Below, in pieces: positions 3,915-15,063 of a DNA stretch of 64,000 bases. The notes under the pieces were generated by a model that ran no database searches, was not told the origin of the DNA, and worked only from the letters and a program-made list of their open reading frames with translations. This DNA is from Phyllosticta citribraziliensis. Its lineage: Eukaryota. The first letter of the stretch is position 1. Every line of letters begins with the position of its first letter. The DNA lies in NCBI RefSeq assembly GCF_038025025.1, contig NW_027117339.1, positions 1,240,001 to 1,304,000 of the forward strand, in the 5' to 3' direction. The translations under genes and the position numbers were made by a program.

Positions 3915-5036
3915 ATGCTGCGACTTCTCCCTGCTAGAACCCTCTGTCGCGTCTGTTTTGCTCCAACCCGAGCGGCTCCGTCTCTTCTCCGCTTACCCCG
4001 AGTCGTTGCACGCATCCGACAACCGTCTCTCCCGTCATCACCGAGCTTCGCCGCCCTGTTCCACCGCCGTAACATGGCCTCCGCTCCTCTGCCAATCCAT
4101 CTGATCCTCGACTGGGATGGCACCCTCACAGCCAAAGACACGCTGCACTTTCTTGGCCAAATAAGCGCAGAGCACGCCGCCAAACATGTCGCGCCGCCAA
4201 CCTCGTCCTGGGACGACATTGTCAAAGCCTACGTCGATGATCTAGACGCCCATGTCCAGGCCTACCGCCCTTCCTCCAGTGAACGCACCACCATTGCCGA
4301 AGAGACGGCATGGCTTGCCAGTCTGGAGGACGTCGATTTGCGCAGCGTCAAGCGCGTCGAAGACGCCGGTCTGTTTGCAGGCATCACTGCCGACTCCGTG
4401 TCCCAGGGGGCAGCCAAAGCCGTCGGGAGCGGCCAACTGCAGCTGCGCAAGGGATGGGAGGATCTGCTCTTTAGAAACGAGGGCAACCACGGCGTCTTGC
4501 GAGGCAAGATTAGCATTCTGAGCGTGAACTGGAGCGCTACCTTCATCCGCGAGGCACTGCTCCACGCCGCCTACGACACAAAGACGTTGCAGTCGTCCCT
4601 CATGGATGCCGATGCGCTGCGCCGTACCCTGCAGAACATTGACATTTCTGCCAATGAGTTTGAACGTCTTGACCACCGCAATGGTTCATCCGGTCGACTG
4701 ACCAAGGCTGGGGAAAAGGGCATCAGGACCAGCCAAGATAAACTGCAGCGCATGCCCATCCCCCACAAATATGGTGGCGATGAGCTAGTGATTTACGTCG
4801 GTGATTCGTGCACCGATCTAGAGGCATTGCTTGCCGCCGACGTGGGCATTTGCATTCGAGATGAGCCAATGGGTAGCGGCCAGAGGGAGCTTGCAGAAAC
4901 TCTAGAGAGGATCGGTGTTCCGGTCCACCGTTTAAAACTGCTGGCAGAGATGCCGCCGCCTGATGATAGTCGGATTGACCTGTGGTGGACGCCAAGTCTT
5001 GAGGAATTGTCCATGTCACTCGATTCTTTGAATTAG
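3915..5036 (+). CDS. HAD-superfamily phosphatase, CTO1/YCR015C- or TH2-HAD-like; putative mitochondrial presequence 3915-4073, alternative start 4074
   Basis: HAD motif I LILDWDGTLT, motif II ILSVNWS, motif IV YVGDSCTDLEALLAADVGI; Arg/Leu/Ser-rich acid-free N-terminus. Confidence 0.85.
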   Translation: MLRLLPARTLCRVCFAPTRAAPSLLRLPRVVARIRQPSLPSSPSFAALFHRRNMASAPLPIHLILDWDGTLTAKDTLHFLGQISAEHAAKHVAPPTSSWDDIVKAYVDDLDAHVQAYRPSSSERTTIAEETAWLASLEDVDLRSVKRVEDAGLFAGITADSVSQGAAKAVGSGQLQLRKGWEDLLFRNEGNHGVLRGKISILSVNWSATFIREALLHAAYDTKTLQSSLMDADALRRTLQNIDISANEFERLDHRNGSSGRLTKAGEKGIRTSQDKLQRMPIPHKYGGDELVIYVGDSCTDLEALLAADVGICIRDEPMGSGQRELAETLERIGVPVHRLKLLAEMPPPDDSRIDLWWTPSLEELSMSLDSLN

Positions 5037-5415
5037 GTTCACATCAGACATAACACATGTCATGCAAAAGGAGACGCTGTCACGCTTGGTAAAGTATTGA
5101 TACAGAAACATACCCCTGGCACAGCGGCTACCCAGAGAGTATTCGTCCCCTACTACGAATGAATCAACGCAGATAGATTCAGAAAGTGCCATTTGTTTTG
5201 GTCACTCGCGTGAAGTGATTTTGTAGTTTCTTGAAGGCAAAACCTGGCCATACCAGGCTGCAAAACCAAGACCAGAAAGAGAAGCAAAGGTATCAAAAGC
5301 CCGAGAATGGAAATCCGCCAAAACATAGACTCGGCGAGTCCTTAGACCTCAGAGTAGCCAGCCCTACGCCGTGCACCATCAGCACCGTGAAGCAGGCGTG
5401 TGGGACGCAAGATGC

Positions 5416-6101
5416 TCACTTTTTGCCTCCAATCTTGCCGAGCAGGTCCTTGGCCTTGTCTCCCAAGCCCCTCACGTCGTCTCTTTCGCCCCCATGTGCC
5501 GCCCTCTCGCGCTCGATCTCACCACTGGTGCGCTGCTCGGTGTGGCGCTTGGCCTCCAGCGCCTCGTCGTCTGTCATTTTGGTGACGTTGGCGGCGCCGC
5601 CGCGGCCAAAGTGAAAGTTGCCTTCGGGTTCACGGTGAGCGTGGACGGGCGCTTCGACATCCTGAGCCGCGCGCGCAATCTCGGGGTGGGCCGGGTCGTT
5701 TTTGGCCATGTTGCCGCTGCCGCCGCGGCCCGTCGTGTACAGCTGCGACTTGATGGTCGGGGTGACGAGGTCTTCGGGCTTGGACATGGAGGAGCGTCGG
5801 TCTCCCGCCGCAATGTTGCCTGCAAAGGACATGTCTGCGTCAGTCTCGGCCGATCGATTGTCTTGCCGCAAAAACGAATTGCGCGTCCGCCTCCTCTTGT
5901 CAACATGTCTGCGGCATCGGCTGACCCGAAGGTCGCAACCATGATGCTGATCGACGCTGCAAGGCAGACGTTGTTGCGTCGACGAGGGTGAACAGGGCAG
6001 AGGGTGAGATAAGAAAACGCACCTGCGCCGCCGCGCCCATGCGACATGGCGCGCGCAGCAGAGCCTTGGCCGTCGGTCGAGTGACGAATATCGCCAACCA
6101 T
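5416..6101 (-). CDS. DUF3602 / PAR32-like small protein with GRGGAGN repeats (intron ~6022-5820)
   Basis: SHGRGGAGNI, YTTGRGGSGNM, FHFGRGGAANV motifs; GTGCGT donor, ACTGAC branch and TTGCAG acceptor. Confidence 0.85.
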
Positions 6102-7696
6102 GTTTGTAGTGGTTGTTTGAGTTTTGGAGGGTAGTCTTCTTTGGTTTGGGAGCGCTCCCTGTCGTAGGCGTTGAAGACTGAGCGACAGATTAGGGGACCC
6201 AGGTGACAAGCGTGTCAAGCCACCGAATTCGACCGTGACGTTGGAGGGAAGCTACGAGGACCCTGTGACGAAAGCGGACAAGTTGGGCAACAACAACAAA
6301 GGGGATCGTCTGTCTGTCAACTGCCGACAGCAAGGCGAGGCACAATACCGTGTTCCAGCGAAGCCCACAAGCGCTGCTCAGCGACAGCGAAAACCCAAGC
6401 TTTTGAAAGACGGTCCAACTCCACCTGTGCGAGGGTTGGGTGCGGATGCGGCGCACATCATGTGGGGGAGAAGAGATCGCGGGCGCACTTTGCAGCGCAC
6501 GAACGGGGTTTGCTGCCAGGACTCGTAAGGCGTTCGCCCAAAGAGACGGCCAGTACAGGTGAGAGAGCGAATAGTGTCGAAGGGTTAGCCAACGGGAAAG
6601 GCTTGATGGGGTTCCCATCACGTAAGAGTTTGCCCGTGGATGAGGAGCACAAAGGCGTCGTCTAGCCTGCAAAAAGCCATCCAACCCTTGGCCTGCAGCC
6701 TCGAGCAGCTGGCTTCGGCCTCATGACTTCCGCTCTCGCCATTTGCGGGGCGCGGAGTGTTCGCGCGTCGACACGAATGCGGACGTTGAAACGTGACGTT
6801 AGGCGACTGAGGCGTGCAATGATGCGATGAGCCCCAACAGCGTTCATAGCCTCAGGCCCGGCTATCAAGGGGGCCGTTGCCGCGACAGACGGCAACAGGG
6901 TTCGCGGCATTGCCAACAGGCAGCTCGCGGGCGGCGCGGAGGATTTTGTCGCTTGGGTGAGACGACCAACGCGGTGCTTGCGTTGGGTGCGAATAGAGTT
7001 GGGGAGTTGGCTTTGTATGCGCGGAGACCTGAGAGATGGAGAGGGCTGTGATTGCACGGGACAAGCTACAAGGGTCGGTGGGGACCAGTACGGATCACTT
7101 GGGCAGGCTGGCAGATGCATGATGAGACGGCAGGGGATGTATGATCTCCATATTATTCTTCGAAGCGACTCCACCCTCCAACAACACCGTTCCACGTCCA
7201 AAACAAAACAAAAGTACAACACCAATCCGATCTAGAACCCCAGAAGACCAATCTATGTTCCGACCCAAAAAAATATCCCAAGCCCAACGAGTTCGTGTCC
7301 TGCCGCGAGGCACCCGTCTATCTATTCTCCGTCTATTCCCAGGAAAACAAAAAACTCCACGCTATGCAGGCGATCGTGTCGCAACGAGGTCGTCCAAAGA
7401 ATAATGCTTCCAATCAGACCCAAAAGCGCCGCCAAATGCAAGTGTTCTATAATGGTGTCGTCGTCCAAGAAGGCGTAATATCGAATGGTGATTCGGAGCC
7501 AAAAAAAAAAAAAAAAAAAGTAAGGTTGCAGCGAGTGGTGCGCCGTGGGTGTGCAGTGGAGCTGGGCCTGGGCCGCTAATGGTGTGCGGGCTTGTTTGGT
7601 GCCCGTTTGGTCCCCGTGAAGGATTATTCTGCGCAACTGTCAATGAATTGTCCACGAATGAATGTAGGATTCGGTGGGAGCATTCTTACCAATTTC

Positions 7697-7843
7697 TTAG
7701 GAGCCGTAGGGGTCGCGGCTGTTGCCCGGGTCGGGGTCTGCGCGGGCCATGATAGATTGCTGGCCTTTGACGGAACGAGAGGGCAGAGAGGTGCGAGCAA
7801 CGCGGTGGTTGATGGAGTTGGAAGCGAATGCGGCGGCAGACAT
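7697..7843 (-). CDS. Candidate 48-aa micro-ORF (MSAAAFASNSINHRVARTSLPSRSVKGQQSIMARADPDPGNSRDPYGS) with a 3'-UTR intron at 7689-7629
   Basis: ACCACAATGTCT start context, C/A-rich leader, upstream TATATA at 8039-8045, GTAAGA donor 7 nt after the stop, ATTGAC branch and GCGCAG acceptor. Confidence 0.55.
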   Translation of the reverse strand: MSAAAFASNSINHRVARTSLPSRSVKGQQSIMARADPDPGNSRDPYGS

Positions 7844-8038
7844 TGTGGTAGAGAGAGAGGTTGGCGCGAGGTATTAAATATTAGGGCGTCGAGAGGTTGG
7901 TTGTTTGGACGAGTGGACGAGAGGGCGTGTTGGGCGTGTTTATTATTTGTGTGCGAAGACTAAAGGAAGGGTATGCTCGTCTGGAGGCGTCGAGGATGGC
8001 TGGTCTGGCTGGGGACAGGGAGAGGCAGTCCGGGGGTC

Positions 8039-8045
8039 TATATAT
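8039..8045 (-). promoter_or_regulatory. Putative TATA box of the micro-ORF transcript
   Basis: ATATATA about 195 bp upstream of ATG 7843, followed by a pyrimidine/CA-rich leader. Confidence 0.5.
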
Positions 8046-8592
8046 CTGGTCGACAGGGCAGGATAGGAAAGGAAAAAAAGGGCTGAGGGCTCACAGGGCG
8101 AAAGATGCCACGGCGGTTGGATTGTTGAAACGGTCGAGTTATGACGAGCTGCCCTGGCGGAAGCAATACGGGGCGGGCGGCGCTGAGTGTTTTCCATGGC
8201 ACCCAGGCAGTTGAACGACGCTCTGTGCTGCGCCAACATGAGAGGCTTCATGGCATCCCGCGGCCAGCACGGGCTGTGCACGAGTGGCTTTCGTCCGGGT
8301 TGTTGCGCACGTCCCGGCGGTAGGTATTCGATTGGCCATGACGATGGGGCTTCAGCTTTCTCGAATCGTTCCATGATCCCTGTGAGAAGGTTGACGCGGA
8401 CCCGCTGTTGTGCGAGCTGCTGCTGTGCGCTGAGCTGGGTGCTGATGGCAGCCATGTCCTGATCCCGAGGCCGGCTTCTAGAACCCGTGACGTACTCGCG
8501 CATTCAGCCCAGCGGAGCTCCAGAGGAGAGGCAAGGCGCTCTCTGCGGACCGCGGCAGCTCGTAAGGCAGCGCTGAGGGTTTGGCGACGAGA

Positions 8593-8616
8593 GGGATGGG
8601 ATGGGATGGGATGGAT
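8593..8616. repeat. (GGGAT)n microsatellite
   Basis: gggatgggatgggatgggatggat. Confidence 0.8.
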
Positions 8617-11600
8617 GTCAGGAACAGGCATGGCGCCGTCAAGCCCACGCAGAGTGAGGCAATGATCCAATATCCCTGCGGAACCCTGCGCAACCACACA
8701 CCCATGCCTCCCGCCAGCTGCCATGCGATATGGATCGCATTTTTTGTTCAACCAAGCCGCCAGCCAGCCATCCCAAGGGAGCCGACGTCGAGCCGCATGT
8801 CCAGCACCAGCACCAGCATCAGCACCAGCACCTCAGCGCAGCCAATATCGGGCACGAGGCCGGGCTTGAAACATTGCTGTTTAGACGACGATCCGAGCAT
8901 CCAACCTGGCCAGCCGAGGGTTGGCGCGCGCAAAAGGGGGGGAGGGGGGCTCCCAGGCTGATTACGTCGACCTGTTGGATCTCAGTGCTCTTCAGCTTCG
9001 AGAAGGAAGGCCTCAATCCGGGCTGAGCTGGCGCTTCCGCATGACCCGTCGACCCCTTCCCTTCCCTTCCCTTTCGCGCCGAACGGTGACCTCAATCGTC
9101 ATTGTAGGTCGTCACTGAACAGGACAGGAACAGGGGCACGAATCACATGACGTGGATGAATCAAGACAGTTGAATGTCGAGGTCGAGGCTGGCTGGCCAA
9201 GGTATCCCAGCTCCCGGCCAGGGGGTCGCCGCCACAGTCTTGGCCTCGCTTTCCTTGGCCATCCGGGAACGCGCCCCCTTTCCCGCTTCCCGCCCGCCCA
9301 CCTGCACCACATTGAGCCCTCGTGGGATGGATGCTGCTGTAACCCGCGCACAATGGTGGTGCAGCAGTCGTCTGCCATGGCATGCCATACAACCCACCAA
9401 CCCGTCACGTCACCTGCCGGGCGTTGGATGGGAACCGGATCCGCACGCGCTTGCGGCAGATCTTCAGGAGAGAACCCCAGCACTGGGAGGTCCCCAAGAA
9501 TAGACAGCCATCTGCTCTGCTTTCCCAATTTAGCAGACCAGAACAAAAATGTTTCGCTTCATCCTCGCCGCTGACTATGGGATCCCGTTCAAACATGACT
9601 AGCTCCAGCTTGCGAGACGCCTGAAACGGCTCTCTCGAGACCCACTCTGGCCCATGAGGCTCTGGACAGCGAGATGACTGTGGCTGCAACGCGCGTACAT
9701 GATGCTTGTGGCTCGCGTCGATTGCCATCATCATTTCTCTCTGCTTCTATTCCTCTTTGATGGCGGCACGTCACTCGGCCAACAATTTACCTAGCGGATC
9801 CATTCCATGTCTGTTGCATCTTCCAAATCGTGCTTCAGGCTTTCCACCGACGGCGGGCCTCTTTCTCAAAGCAGCCAGCTGCCGCTCCAGCGACATGGTA
9901 TGGCTATGGCAGTGTGCGACAGGCGCCTGCCCGTCTCCAAAACACTGGTTAAGCTCTCCTGGGAACTGGGTCGCTGCCGTGTCACCGCCTCGCCACACTT
10001 TGTTCGCCTGTCGGGCTCCCGCTGGCGTGCCTGTGGCGCCGCCGCTGCCCATGCACGTCTCACAACTCTGGCTGTCTGTCGAGCAACCATTCCAGCGTGA
10101 CAATCAATCTTTGCTGTCGCCCAAGACACATGGCCATGCGACGCGACGCGACGCAACATTGCACCAACCCTTCAGCTGTCCTCCACTCCGCCGTCACCGT
10201 GCCGGCACTGCCGCCAGCACACCCACCCGCGCAAACAAAGACACCCAAAATAGCTCATCGCCTCCTCTGTCCCATCTCTTGTCCAAGCCAAAGTCAATGA
10301 CGGCAAGCGTTGCATCTTCATCACGTCGTCGACACTTGCCGCCGACGCCGGGTCTCAGGTTCAGGTCGTTCGGGGTCTTCAGCCCATCAGCCGCTCCCGA
10401 TCCACATTAACGACTTTGCCCACTTTTCCCCGTCCGCTTGCAGGCATTCCGATATTGATGATCTGCTCCCAGGGCGCCCTTTCCCTCGTCCTGCACGTCA
10501 ACAAAACGACGGCCTTTTTTTACTTGTTGTTCGCCTCGCACATGCACGCTGCGCCCGCCCGCCTACCTGGATGGCCTTCCTGCAATGCGCCTTGTTTTTT
10601 TCCCCAATGCCACAGCAGCAGGTCCATCAACTTCTGTCGCTGGCTGAAAAGAGTCATTTCGTTAAAAAAGATTCTGCGTCCTGGGCCCCAAAAGCAACTC
10701 CAACTTTTTCTCCACCACCCTGATCTGCACGCGTCAGAAAGCAGGCACCCGCTCCCTGTCGCTGATCGCTCGTCGTCCGCCCGCCCACCCTTCCCGCCGC
10801 GCTTGGCTGCCGCGCTGCCGCTACCACTACCGCTACCCGCCGTACGCCGCCCTGCCTGCCTGGCTGCCAACTGACGAAACACCCGTCATCCCAACAGCTT
10901 TGCGACCCTTGACCGATCGAGAACGAGTGCAAAACGGCTCGACTTTCCCATCAACACCTTGGCCGCTGACGAGTGCTAGACGCGGCTCGCTTGGCCATTG
11001 CTTAAACCGCTCGCTTGCCGTTTGTACCCAACACCAAAAGGCAAAGTGGCTCGAATCTAGACAAATCTGGGTTCAAGTGACTCAGCATCAATCGCTGCTC
11101 GACTTGACAAGGTTCCTCGGTCCCTGAAAAAACACTGCTGACTTGCTACCGCTGCTGCCCAGCGGGCCGGGAATTTAGACTTTTGACTCGATAAGCCGCA
11201 GGCCCTGTGGATGTACGCATCATATGGCACCAATTTCAATTTTTTTTTTTTTTCTTTCTCTTTCTCTTTCCTCCTTGGACTTTGGCAGTCAACCTTGTTC
11301 GTCGAAGGGCAATCGTGAAAATATTTCAACGTGTGACGAAATTGCCGCGTGGTGAGCATACCTCTTACTCAAAGGCACCAGCACATCGCGATCGATGCCG
11401 TTCTCGGTCAGCATATACTCACTACACCAAAGCCAACCCAAAAAGACAGTGTCTGGGCAGCAATAGATACCGCTTTACTTCGGTCGTCCTTTGCACCGAG
11501 CAGAGCCGCCGACTGCCTATCTTCCAACCCTGTCGAAGCATCATTCATCGGACGACTAGACAGACAGAGAGAACGAGATGCTTGACTCGCACAAGCACGA

Positions 11601-11911
11601 GCCCAGATGGAATGATTGCTCCTTTGACTTTTTGTTCAATTCGGGAAGCGTCAAAGCAAACGACTACCACAATCCACATGGCGGCCAAACCGCGAGCGTC
11701 TTTTTCCTTTCACGTCTCTTTACCACCACTGCAGCCCAACATCTCATACTCAAGACGTGCTGCAGCACCATGCATCTGATCGACTTACAAGCCGTGGTGA
11801 GCAAAGGTAGTTGGCTTCGTCACTTTCACATGCGTCAGTAGTCTCTTCTCGCACAATTGGATCCATGCAGAAGAATTGAGTACCCCTGCCAATCAACACT
11901 CTGCCCACCGG

Positions 11912-11935
11912 CCAACCAACCAACCAACCAACCAA
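11912..11935. repeat. (CCAA)n microsatellite; complementary (TTGG)n at ~12326-12348
   Basis: ccaaccaaccaaccaaccaaccaa and tggttggttggttggttggttgg. Confidence 0.8.
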
Positions 11936-13018
11936 AGCCAAACAGATTCTGCCCAATCAATCAACCAACAGAAACACATAACCATCTGATCGGCGCTTAA
12001 ACTCCCCCAAAAACCTCCTGTCTCAACTCACACTTTTCCACGTATCCGCCCTCCGCCATGCCTACCTCCGCGATTGGTCCACGGCGCGCGCCCTGCCGCC
12101 TCCAACCACGCACTCCTTGAGCCTCCTCGCGATCGACCGTCCCTGGCTGGCCGGCGGCTGGCCGGCTGAGCGCAGCGGCACTGCGGCACGGCGGCCGTGG
12201 CGGCAGGGAAGGCCTGCCCTGCGCCTTGTTTCCCCCTGTCTCGCGGTGCATGGGCGGAAGGGAAGGAACAAGCAAGGTCCCGCGCCTTGCCGTTTCCGTT
12301 TTTGCATATGAGGCTTTCCGCTTCCTGGTTGGTTGGTTGGTTGGTTGGCTGGCGGTCGGTCGCCGCTCGTTGGCTGGCTTGTCGATTGGATCGCGGCTAT
12401 GCACGTGTCAAGACTCGCACAAGAGCCATGACGAGTAAGTGCGATAGGTGAGCAGTCAGGAAGCATTTGAGCGCGTGCAGTGTAGGTGTTCTTCAGGGAT
12501 TGCAACACGGAGCATTCGAGCCCCAACACGTAATTCGCCAAAGCCTTGATCGCGTGCGCCATGACTTTGTCACCAAGCCTCGGCCTCTTGTTGAATTGGC
12601 GACCTCGTATCGTCGTGACCGAGCTTGGGAGCAGACAGGACAGGCTGCGGCGCGATTGCGTACTCTTTGGTCTTGGTCAGGGATTGGCAAATGGCATCCC
12701 GATATAGGTGCGTGATTGCCGAGTGTCCTTCTCGATCACTTTTTTCTTTGTGCACCGCCGCCTCTTGCCACTGCTGGGCTGTCATGTATGTATGCACTTG
12801 ACGGTGGAAAGGGACACAATGCTCCACTTCAGAATTCGTTGGCTTCTGCAACTGAGGTGTGAGGCTTGCTACAGTTCCTTTTCCATTTTCTTTTTGCCTG
12901 TGCGCTGTTCTTCTTCGATTCCACGTTCGGCAATCGAACACGCCCTTCCGCCGCCACGGAAAAAAAGCCAGCCCCCTATCCATGTCTGCCATGCGAGGAT
13001 GTCTTGGTTGCTCTGTCA

Positions 13019-15063
13019 TCAAACCTCCTTTTGAACAACGACCACGGTGCTCTCGCTCTTCTCCACCCCGAGCCCCGTGTCCTGAGCAAGCGTGCGGTCT
13101 TTCTCAGAGTTCACCGCCTTATTGCCCACGGCGTCCTCGCCGTCAAAGTACTTGGAGATTTCCTCAAGCGGCGTGTTCCGCGTCTCGACATAGAACCGAG
13201 AGATGATGGCGAATTCAATAGCGAGCCACACGCACTACAGTGGCAATTAGCAAGTGACGCCAGCGCCATACGAAAAAAGGAACCACATGAATGCAAGAGA
13301 CAAAGAAGCAAGTCTTACATAGAAAATATAGTACTTCCAGTGCAGCGCATCGAGGGCGATTGGGTTGACAAAAGTCGAGACGAACAGCGACGCGTCGATG
13401 CAGAACCACAGCACTGCGATGCCCTTGGCACGGATGTTGAACGGCAGTATCTCCACGGCGTAGCCGACCATCAGGCCCGACCAGGCAGTGTTGTAGCAAA
13501 AGTAGAATAAAAAGATCATCTGCGAGGATTAGTAGAGTCAGGTCAAGGCTGGTCAGTACGAAGCAGGGGGTGGCGGTACAGGGGCAAGGGGGTCAAAATC
13601 AGGGGTGCGCAACGCAGACTTACGAACACGACCGCGTTGCCCATGGCACGGTTTTCGTAGCTGCTGAGCTCCAGCCGTGCCGACAGAACCGTCCACACGA
13701 CGAAGCAGACCAGCATGCCAGCGGTCGACCCGAGGAACAGCTTTCGTCGGCCGACGCGGTCCACGACGAAGCAGGACCCGACGGCCACGCACGCGTTGGC
13801 AATCTGCAGCACGCCGTTGATGACCAGCTGCTGGTTGCTGTCGGTGATGCCGACCGAGGCGAGCACCGAGCTCATGTAGTACGACACGAGCCCGTTGCCC
13901 GACCACTGCGAGAAGAGGCCGAGCGTGGCGAGGATGAGCAGCCGCCTGCGGTTGCCCTTGGTGCGCCACAGCTCGGCCCAGCCGCCGCTGGAGTCGCATT
14001 CGGACTCGAGTTTGAGCGTCGACTTGATTTCTTCAAACTCGACCTGGACCATTTCGTCGTCGGCTGTCCGTGTGGAGCGTCAGTGCCAAAATGTCTCAGG
14101 CCTTGGTGCACAGGAATAAGTAGAACGCACCATTTCCGTTGGCGTGTACTTTTGCCAGGACCCTCAAGGCGACCTCTTGATTCCCCTTGCTAATGTGCCA
14201 TCTGGGGCTCTCGGGCACAAACCACACAAAGCAAAGCTGCAGCATTGGCGGTGCGGCCTGAACCATGCTCGGCACGCGCCAACTCCACTGGTTCATGACC
14301 TGGCTGGTGCCGAAAGTCAGCCACGCCGCCACGATGCTGCCGACATACCACGTTGTGTTGTAGACTGTCGTGAAGGTGGCTCGGTGCTGCGGGTGCACCA
14401 GCTCGGCGATCAGGAGAGGAGAAGCAACGTGCGCAATGGCCACCCCAAAGCCGACGAGAAAGCGCCCTGCAATGAACATGTGGAGGTTGAAGCTGGCGGC
14501 CTGGAGTCCTACTCCCAGAATCATGACGACCGCTCCGGAGAAGATGGCCATGCGCCGCCCGAAAAAGTCGGCCAAGTAAGGAACAATGGGCTGTGCAAGT
14601 ACTCCACCTAGGAATAGAATTGAACTGAAGAGACCGACAATGGTTCCAGTGGGATGGTCGAAGTCTGACAGTTGTTAGCGCGAGGCGAATGTCAAAGTCA
14701 TTCAGACCAAGGTAAGTCTGGATGATGCAAACATTGCCCTCGTAAACATAGCCAGAGCAGCAGAATTGTGATCGTGATCCAATCCATCCTCGGTCTAACG
14801 CCATGGAGAGACAACGCTTACGCACATTCTTTGAATTGATCCAACGCAAGTAGACCATTGACCATGCTCGAATCATAACCATTCGTTGCCTGCAATGGGT
14901 TATCGATCCGCCGCTCACAGTACCTGGTAAGAGTACTTACACTAGTGAGCACCACAAACATCAAAATGAAGTAAACTTTTCGCATCTCGGGTTCCTTCCA
15001 CCACGTAACTTTGGGGAACTCCTGTCCAGCGAGACGAAAATGGCCTCTGGAAGCGGAATCCAT
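13019..15063 (-). CDS. MFS sugar porter, lactose permease / cellodextrin-transporter-like (multi-exon)
   Basis: ATNGYDSSMVNGL, ADFFGRR, AELVHPQHRA, WRVPSMVQ, VPESPRW, FSQWSGNGLVSYY, VDRVGRRKL, EILPFNIRAKG, ETRNTPLEEI sugar-porter motifs in successive exons. Confidence 0.93.

Follow-up and report, generated by a model that had tools for sequence, protein, structure and literature searches.

Micropeptides encoded by small open reading frames (smORFs) count among the closest described counterparts of the element studied here, a 48-codon open reading frame (ORF) and the intron that follows it on the minus strand of a stretch of Phyllosticta citribraziliensis DNA (contig NW_027117339.1, positions 1,240,001 to 1,304,000). 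This whole stretch of 64,000 nucleotides is referred to as the window, and positions are counted from its first letter. Like the frames of smORF micropeptides, the 48-codon frame, hereafter the micro-ORF, has fewer than 100 codons, was missed by annotation, lies on a spliced transcript of the polyadenylation type, is conserved in a relative and shows coding-like codons. Unlike them, it has a single homologue and is known here from sequence and contigs alone. In the parts of the literature returned by a search, which dealt mostly with animals, plants and yeast, we found no work on smORF micropeptides in filamentous fungi and nothing specific to the peptide encoded by the micro-ORF (P0001).

Other fungal systems share single features with this locus. 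Conserved-peptide upstream ORFs, of which the fungal arginine attenuator peptide is one, combine a short ORF, a conserved C-terminal part and a position upstream of a gene on the same strand, and the present locus resembles them in this layout. In contrast to these systems, no coding-like main ORF lies within 1.2 kb downstream of the micro-ORF. Lipopeptide pheromone precursors of Sordariomycetes are encoded by ORFs of 20-30 codons ending in a CaaX box, and they too are very short ORFs on much longer transcripts, under ORF-length cut-offs. P0001 is not a member of this class, as its tail, rich in Asp, Pro and Gly, ends in ...DPYGS and it has no cysteine and no CaaX box.

Introns located downstream of stop codons form a further point of comparison. 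Mammalian work has provided a junction distance rule of 50-55 nt for decay. In Neurospora, the coupling of introns in the 3′ untranslated region (3′ UTR) to nonsense-mediated decay through the exon junction complex was reportedly the subject of Zhang and Sachs 2015. Passages of two reports describe that introns near or after the stop codon can recruit the decay machinery in this fungus via the exon junction complex, in the first round of translation (PMC7746235, PMC9801653). The locus resembles such decay targets in having a stop codon followed downstream by a spliced intron, within a genome resembling those of filamentous ascomycetes. It differs from them in distance: only 7 nt, an unusual spacing, separate the micro-ORF stop from the junction, fewer than the roughly 50 nt of the mammalian rule. 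A distance beyond this rule, at which decay would be triggered, applies only if an ORF of 186 amino acids (aa) further upstream is translated, since the junction lies 253 nt past its stop.

The transcript itself was examined with contigs of four coded runs, X1, X3, X6 and X20 (organism labels A, B, D and I, respectively), placed on positions 5200-8700 at 80% likeness; X1, X3 and X6 come from three studies. Run type is unrecorded, the listed kinds being guesses, and the RNA origin of X1, X3 and X6 was judged from their splice joints. A 1577-nt contig of X1 lies on 7530-7628 and 7690-8582 with 0 mismatches in both flanks and skips 61 nt, whose ends read CT..AC on the plus strand and hence GT..AG on the minus one. 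Over the two intron bins, the depth of X1 was 335.7 and 316.9, compared with 335.8 and 316.9 computed as contig depth (441.4) times exonic fraction; this agreement indicates that the intron has no contig cover in X1. The identical 7628/7690 junction is present in X3, with G>T at the last exon base, and in X6, with 2 substitutions ahead of it and an 11-nt deletion in exon 2. X20 is colinear over 7268-8266 and keeps the intron, which is thus also seen in a DNA-like form. In the neighboring DUF3602 gene, a 203-nt GT..AG intron is likewise skipped by X1, X3 and X6, and a second GT..AG intron (56 nt) by X1. These joints in the same runs indicate that the contigs derive from spliced RNA. The preliminary description of this DNA, made from the letters alone, had proposed an RNA-seq junction at 7690/7628, and transcription and splicing at exactly these sites are observed under three organism labels. 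A spliced transcript at this locus is near certain, and the 61-nt intron is no chance motif.

Codon usage distinguishes the micro-ORF from the sequence around it. With a log-odds score for which six long ORFs from the window served as training set, it reaches 0.18 per codon, whereas its five other frames range from -0.10 to -0.27. It ranks 2/193 among the ATG ORFs of 40-70 codons in the whole window and first among all ATG ORFs of at least 20 codons on both strands of 6340-9140. Scores of the neighboring genes are 0.31 for exon 2 of DUF3602, 0.19 and 0.11 for the exons of a sugar transporter and 0.18 for a 319-codon ORF at 4080-5036, and the micro-ORF matches the level of these real genes. The short first exon of DUF3602 (26 codons) scores -0.10, and six long ORFs from the gene-poor stretch around the micro-ORF, referred to below as the desert, score between -0.05 and -0.146 per codon. 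C occupies the third position in 31 of the 48 codons, the first in 13/48 and the second in 20/48. The length of 48 codons is in itself no evidence, because such open frames are unremarkable in G-poor sequence.

A second line of support comes from conservation. A phmmer search of P0001 against 1.84 billion representative proteins gave 3 matches at E<=0.001, one of them true: P0002, a protein of 50 aa encoded on a 10,471-nt contig, which spans residues 1-48 of P0001 (E 1e-10) and is its sole true homologue. The ORF is thus intact in a second organism. In the alignment of the two proteins 36 of 48 residues are invariant, start and stop coincide, and the two indels (-2 aa and +4 aa) are both in frame. 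Changes are concentrated in the N-terminal part, with 10 of 29 aligned positions altered there versus 0 of 17 in the C-terminal part (Fisher p=0.0075). Just downstream, the 7-nt spacer from stop codon to splice site differs at two positions among X1, X3 and X6, which makes a splicing signal an unlikely source of the constraint just upstream. Conservation at the nucleotide or peptide level had been named as a check on the locus; at the peptide level it is seen in one relative (P0002).

Other candidates for homology were rejected. P0003 (E 2e-4) and P0004 (E 4e-4) are multi-stretch matches to repetitive proteins of 522 aa and 1001 aa. A word-index protein search gave no candidate with P0001 alone and only P0002 with the alignment of P0001 and P0002. 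In a metagenome scan with the same alignment, 57 stretches match the pattern and 1 passes tblastn; this locus (L001) was discarded, since residues 17-38 are matched in the middle of an unrelated 101-aa frame on a 1.5-kb contig and the C-terminal motif is missing. No paralogue of P0001 was found in the window with tblastn, the next best match having an E value of 0.053.

These analyses lend some support to the hypothesis that the 48-codon ORF is a lineage-restricted micropeptide gene, predicted from sequence to be translated and functional, and we give this reading slightly better than an even chance. In this reading, a minus-strand RNA polymerase II transcript crosses 8582-7530, with its single 61-nt intron (7689-7629) removed efficiently. 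From codon usage and conservation we infer that the micro-ORF is most likely translated, giving a basic, hydrophilic and largely disordered peptide of about 5 kDa (5.06 kDa; isoelectric point 10.8; grand average of hydropathy -0.71). The constrained part of this peptide would be the C-terminal 17-mer. Its N-terminal 31 residues appear more variable, basic and free of acidic residues (4 K/R and 0 D/E in P0001, 5 K/R and 0 D/E in P0002), and they may be helical: the AlphaFold model places a helix at 3-19 (predicted local distance difference test, pLDDT, about 65-71) and no other structure. An organellar (mitochondrial) presequence is a bare possibility for this part. A ribosome ending the micro-ORF would be expected to sweep the exon-junction region, with the stop codon 7 nt upstream of it, and under the usual distance rule a junction so close to the stop would leave no junction-dependent decay mark. 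This spacing is consistent with the micropeptide reading.

Several observations weigh against this interpretation. Base use across the codon positions of the micro-ORF is uneven (chi-square p=0.010), yet by this measure it ranks only 39/193. The homologue count is one, and P0002 was found as an intact called ORF, so that its intactness is subject to ascertainment bias. P0001 matches no Pfam family (0 families at E<=0.01), has no usable match in the ESM Atlas and reaches a best E value of 0.79 in a profile search of the PDB. Its AlphaFold model, built on the two-sequence alignment, is of low confidence (mean pLDDT 62). The spliced contigs reach about 1.3 kb upstream of the micro-ORF ATG, and 9140-7844 holds 19 ATGs; if the transcript starts near 9138, scanning ribosomes would have poor access to the micro-ORF. 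A start close to the TATA-like element at 8045-8039 is possible.

The extent of the transcript bears directly on the alternatives. The X1 record holds 556 letters past 8582 and that of X3 holds 564 past 8574, taking both to about 9138 if colinear. Further contig records cover 6348-7489 (X1) and 6048-7491 (X3), and a contig of X6 extends from 8075 through the splice as far as 6223, so that it overlaps the beginning of the DUF3602 transcript. Together, the contigs, which give neither strand, ends nor single-molecule linkage, cover 6223-8582 and beyond. X6 has loose poly-A ends at a short T-run (8073-8079). Contig depth was not used as a hint of a start near the TATA box or the T-run, as it is a single mean and cannot rank parts of the unit; the values are 113 vs 554 in X6 and 71.5 vs 1021 in X3 across 8075, and 441 vs 1401 and 567 in X1 across the 19-T run listed in the table. 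The locus had been described as a compact unit from TATA box to intron; this does not agree with contigs that run far upstream of the ATG and that, in one organism, are continuous down to 6223.

This wide contig cover (7530 to about 9138 in X1 and X3, 6348-7489 in X1, 8075-6223 in X6) is one reason to weigh an alternative in which the locus makes a spliced RNA, long non-coding or produced by read-through, upstream of DUF3602, and the 48-codon ORF is not translated to any purpose. Such an RNA would share its direction with the downstream DUF3602 gene, which is highly expressed, and may modulate that gene. The many upstream ATGs, the missing family match and the finding that 6340-9140 holds no second coding-like ORF all fit this explanation as well. 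However, P0002 keeps the start, the stop, in-frame indels and the 17-mer despite changes in a third of the N-terminal residues, the micro-ORF scores like a real gene in codon usage, and a contig spanning two units does not prove a single transcript. We regard a non-coding transcript as unlikely, though it retains a substantial share of our belief. The preliminary description had offered a related option, a host for non-coding RNA, for which nothing speaks: the 64-kb window contains 0 Rfam matches at gathering score and 0 transfer RNAs, folding of 7690-7990 and of the intron gives z-scores of 0.39 and 0.24, respectively, and an intron of 61 nt is too short to host a small nucleolar RNA.

Annotation offers another candidate product. 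P0001 is absent from a collection of 15 billion proteins, in keeping with the view of the micro-ORF as a hidden, unannotated gene. The 186-aa ORF, in contrast, is a deposited protein (P0005), and no ORF on the transcript is longer. The same collection lacks five further ORFs of the desert as well as the ORF of unspliced DUF3602, and P0005 is thus a deposited gene model and not the result of blanket ORF calling. If it were the true product, the micro-ORF and the intron would lie in its 3′ UTR. Besides its deposition in NCBI and UniRef and its length, the distribution of X6 substitutions favors it, with fewer across 8073-8574 (18 in 502) than across 7692-8075 (27 in 384) or 6223-7606 (105 in 1384). 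This conserved stretch is equally well explained as promoter sequence, and the codon score of P0005, -0.05 per codon, is like that of other desert ORFs. It has no Pfam match, and among 5.8 billion clusters, searched at near lengths only, P0005 found only itself. Furthermore, a transcript beginning near 9138 would place 11 ATGs ahead of its start, and the distance from its stop to the junction is of the kind that a passage of PMC7746235 describes as a decay trigger in Neurospora. On this evidence the 186-aa ORF is an improbable product. X20 carries 4 substitutions in 276 positions of the same region (8237-8512); the conservation of 8073-8574 may reflect a promoter, or constraint on part of the RNA or of the 186-aa ORF.

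The micro-ORF could also act as a conserved-peptide upstream ORF of a long 5′-extended DUF3602 isoform, controlling its translation or stability. It shares the orientation of the DUF3602 gene, the X6 contig links its exon to 6223, and conservation at the C-terminus is as in arrest peptides. About 1.6 kb with further ATG ORFs (e.g. 7120-6662) nevertheless separates it from the DUF3602 ATG at about 6101, and contigs cannot prove that one molecule spans both. We consider such an arrangement very improbable.

Still more speculative is a self-contained regulatory switch, to which we attach hardly any probability. In this scenario the 17-mer would act in the ribosomal exit tunnel while the ribosome terminates right over the exon junction, 7 nt away. 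Translation of the micro-ORF would then determine if the junction mark is removed and, with it, the fate of the transcript, retention or degradation. If such a switch existed, it would act on a transcript capable of continuing towards the DUF3602 gene, which is strongly expressed, and it would be a peptide-and-splice-junction device undescribed in fungi.

Two further readings were dropped. A pseudogene remnant, left by a nonsense mutation in a once longer first exon, was rejected in view of a TAA two codons into exon 2 in the same frame and of P0002, which stops at the same residue. A fusion of the 186-aa ORF with the micro-ORF is contradicted by TAA TAA and another TAA between the two, although they share a frame, and by X1, which has no joint in 7690-8582.

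Returning to the micropeptide gene, the locus illustrates how annotation of an RNA-supported transcript by its longest ORF may name the wrong product: what is annotated is a 186-aa orphan with non-coding-like codon usage, and what is missed is a shorter, conserved, coding-like ORF. If the peptide is real, it would add a lineage-restricted micropeptide to a fungal group in which hardly any such genes are catalogued, and the locus would be a natural instance of a stop codon followed within a few nucleotides by an intron, useful for work on junction-to-stop distance and escape from decay in filamentous fungi. If it is not, the locus would still hold a conserved transcript, spliced and non-coding, immediately upstream of a very active gene.

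The features of the locus, all on the minus strand, are collected in the table below. The expression unit of the preliminary description (TATATA, a C/A-rich leader, a 48-codon ORF with C-ending codon bias and TAA) is present in full where it had been placed, as is the 61-nt intron 7 nt past the stop, which starts with GTAAGA at 7689 and ends with GCAG at 7629. Within 6340-9140 the minus strand contains a sole match to TATA[AT]A, at 8044, inside ATATATA. From 8197 to the micro-ORF ATG at 7843 this strand is free of ATGs, over a distance of 353 nt, and the ATG at 7843 has A at -3.

Table. Features of the micro-ORF locus, in order of transcription; coordinates refer to the window.
Feature	Coordinates	Strand	Remarks
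Upstream stretch colinear in spliced contigs	8582-8046	-	contigs go further, to ~9138 if colinear
186-aa ORF (P0005)	8503-7946; stop codon 7945-7943	-	deposited protein; sources NCBI and UniRef; 2.78-Mb contig
ATATATA	8045-8039	-	~200 nt upstream of micro-ORF ATG; sequence reading, putative promoter role
C/A-rich, G-poor, ATG-free leader	8038-7844	-	C 44%, A 25%, G 12%
ACCACAATGTCT	7849-7838	-	sequence reading
Micro-ORF	7843-7697	-	ATG start, 48 codons and TAA; product P0001
Spacer, stop codon to 5′ splice site	7696-7690	-	7 nt; differs between organisms, last two exon bases altered in X3 and X6
Intron GTAAGA...GCAG	7689-7629	-	61 nt, GT..AG, spliced out
Part of exon 2 present in spliced contigs	7628-7530	-	AATAAT first, at 7628
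19-T run	7519-7501	-	inside 7492-7529, which contig placement skipped as repeat

The listed contig pieces of X1 and X3 end on both sides of the 19-T run. In the frame of the micro-ORF, 18 further codons are open after the TAA (7696-7643, minus strand), through most of the intron and up to a TGA, and the best-scoring 48-codon window (7753-7610) overlaps this open frame. The extension is probably due to chance, and it would matter only given both intron retention and read-through.

Pfam searches place the locus in a stretch that is poor in recognizable genes. Of 76 stop-to-stop ORFs of at least 70 aa in 5800-13600, 72 have no match, and the four that do belong to the flanking DUF3602 and sugar-transporter genes; nothing recognizable by Pfam therefore lies between about 6190 and 13250. 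The proposal of a gene desert holds in this sense, but not in that of silent or gene-free DNA, as the region is transcribed and carries the deposited 186-aa model at 7946-8503. Within it, unspliced contigs of X1, X3 and X6 extend over 6348-7489, which has no coding-like ORF on either strand and no Pfam match and could be a 3′ UTR, read-through or a separate transcript. Short tandem motifs occur on the minus strand at 8583-8700 and 8800-8830, as a CCCAT-like and a GCTGGT-like run; 8583-8700 was skipped as repeats in contig placement.

On the upstream side, the desert is bounded by the sugar-transporter gene (Sugar_tr), whose exons lie at 13250-14674 on the minus strand (E 2e-25 and 1e-6). Its 3′ end near 13250 closes a Pfam-empty stretch of about 6.9 kb. 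On the other side lies the DUF3602 gene (5200-6370, minus strand; Pfam E 4.7e-15), with introns of 203 nt (about 5820-6022; X1, X3 and X6) and 56 nt (about 5363-5419; X1 only) deduced from contig joints. The ATG of its plain ORF, at 5832, falls inside the first intron, and the spliced frame starts at about 6101. Removal of the 203-nt intron recreates a GRGGAGN motif across the junction and opens the frame from the upstream ATG, which provides independent support for the joints as real splicing. At the 56-nt intron, a TGA overlaps the 5′ splice site: the protein ends in ...GGKK when this intron is retained and gains six more residues when it is spliced.

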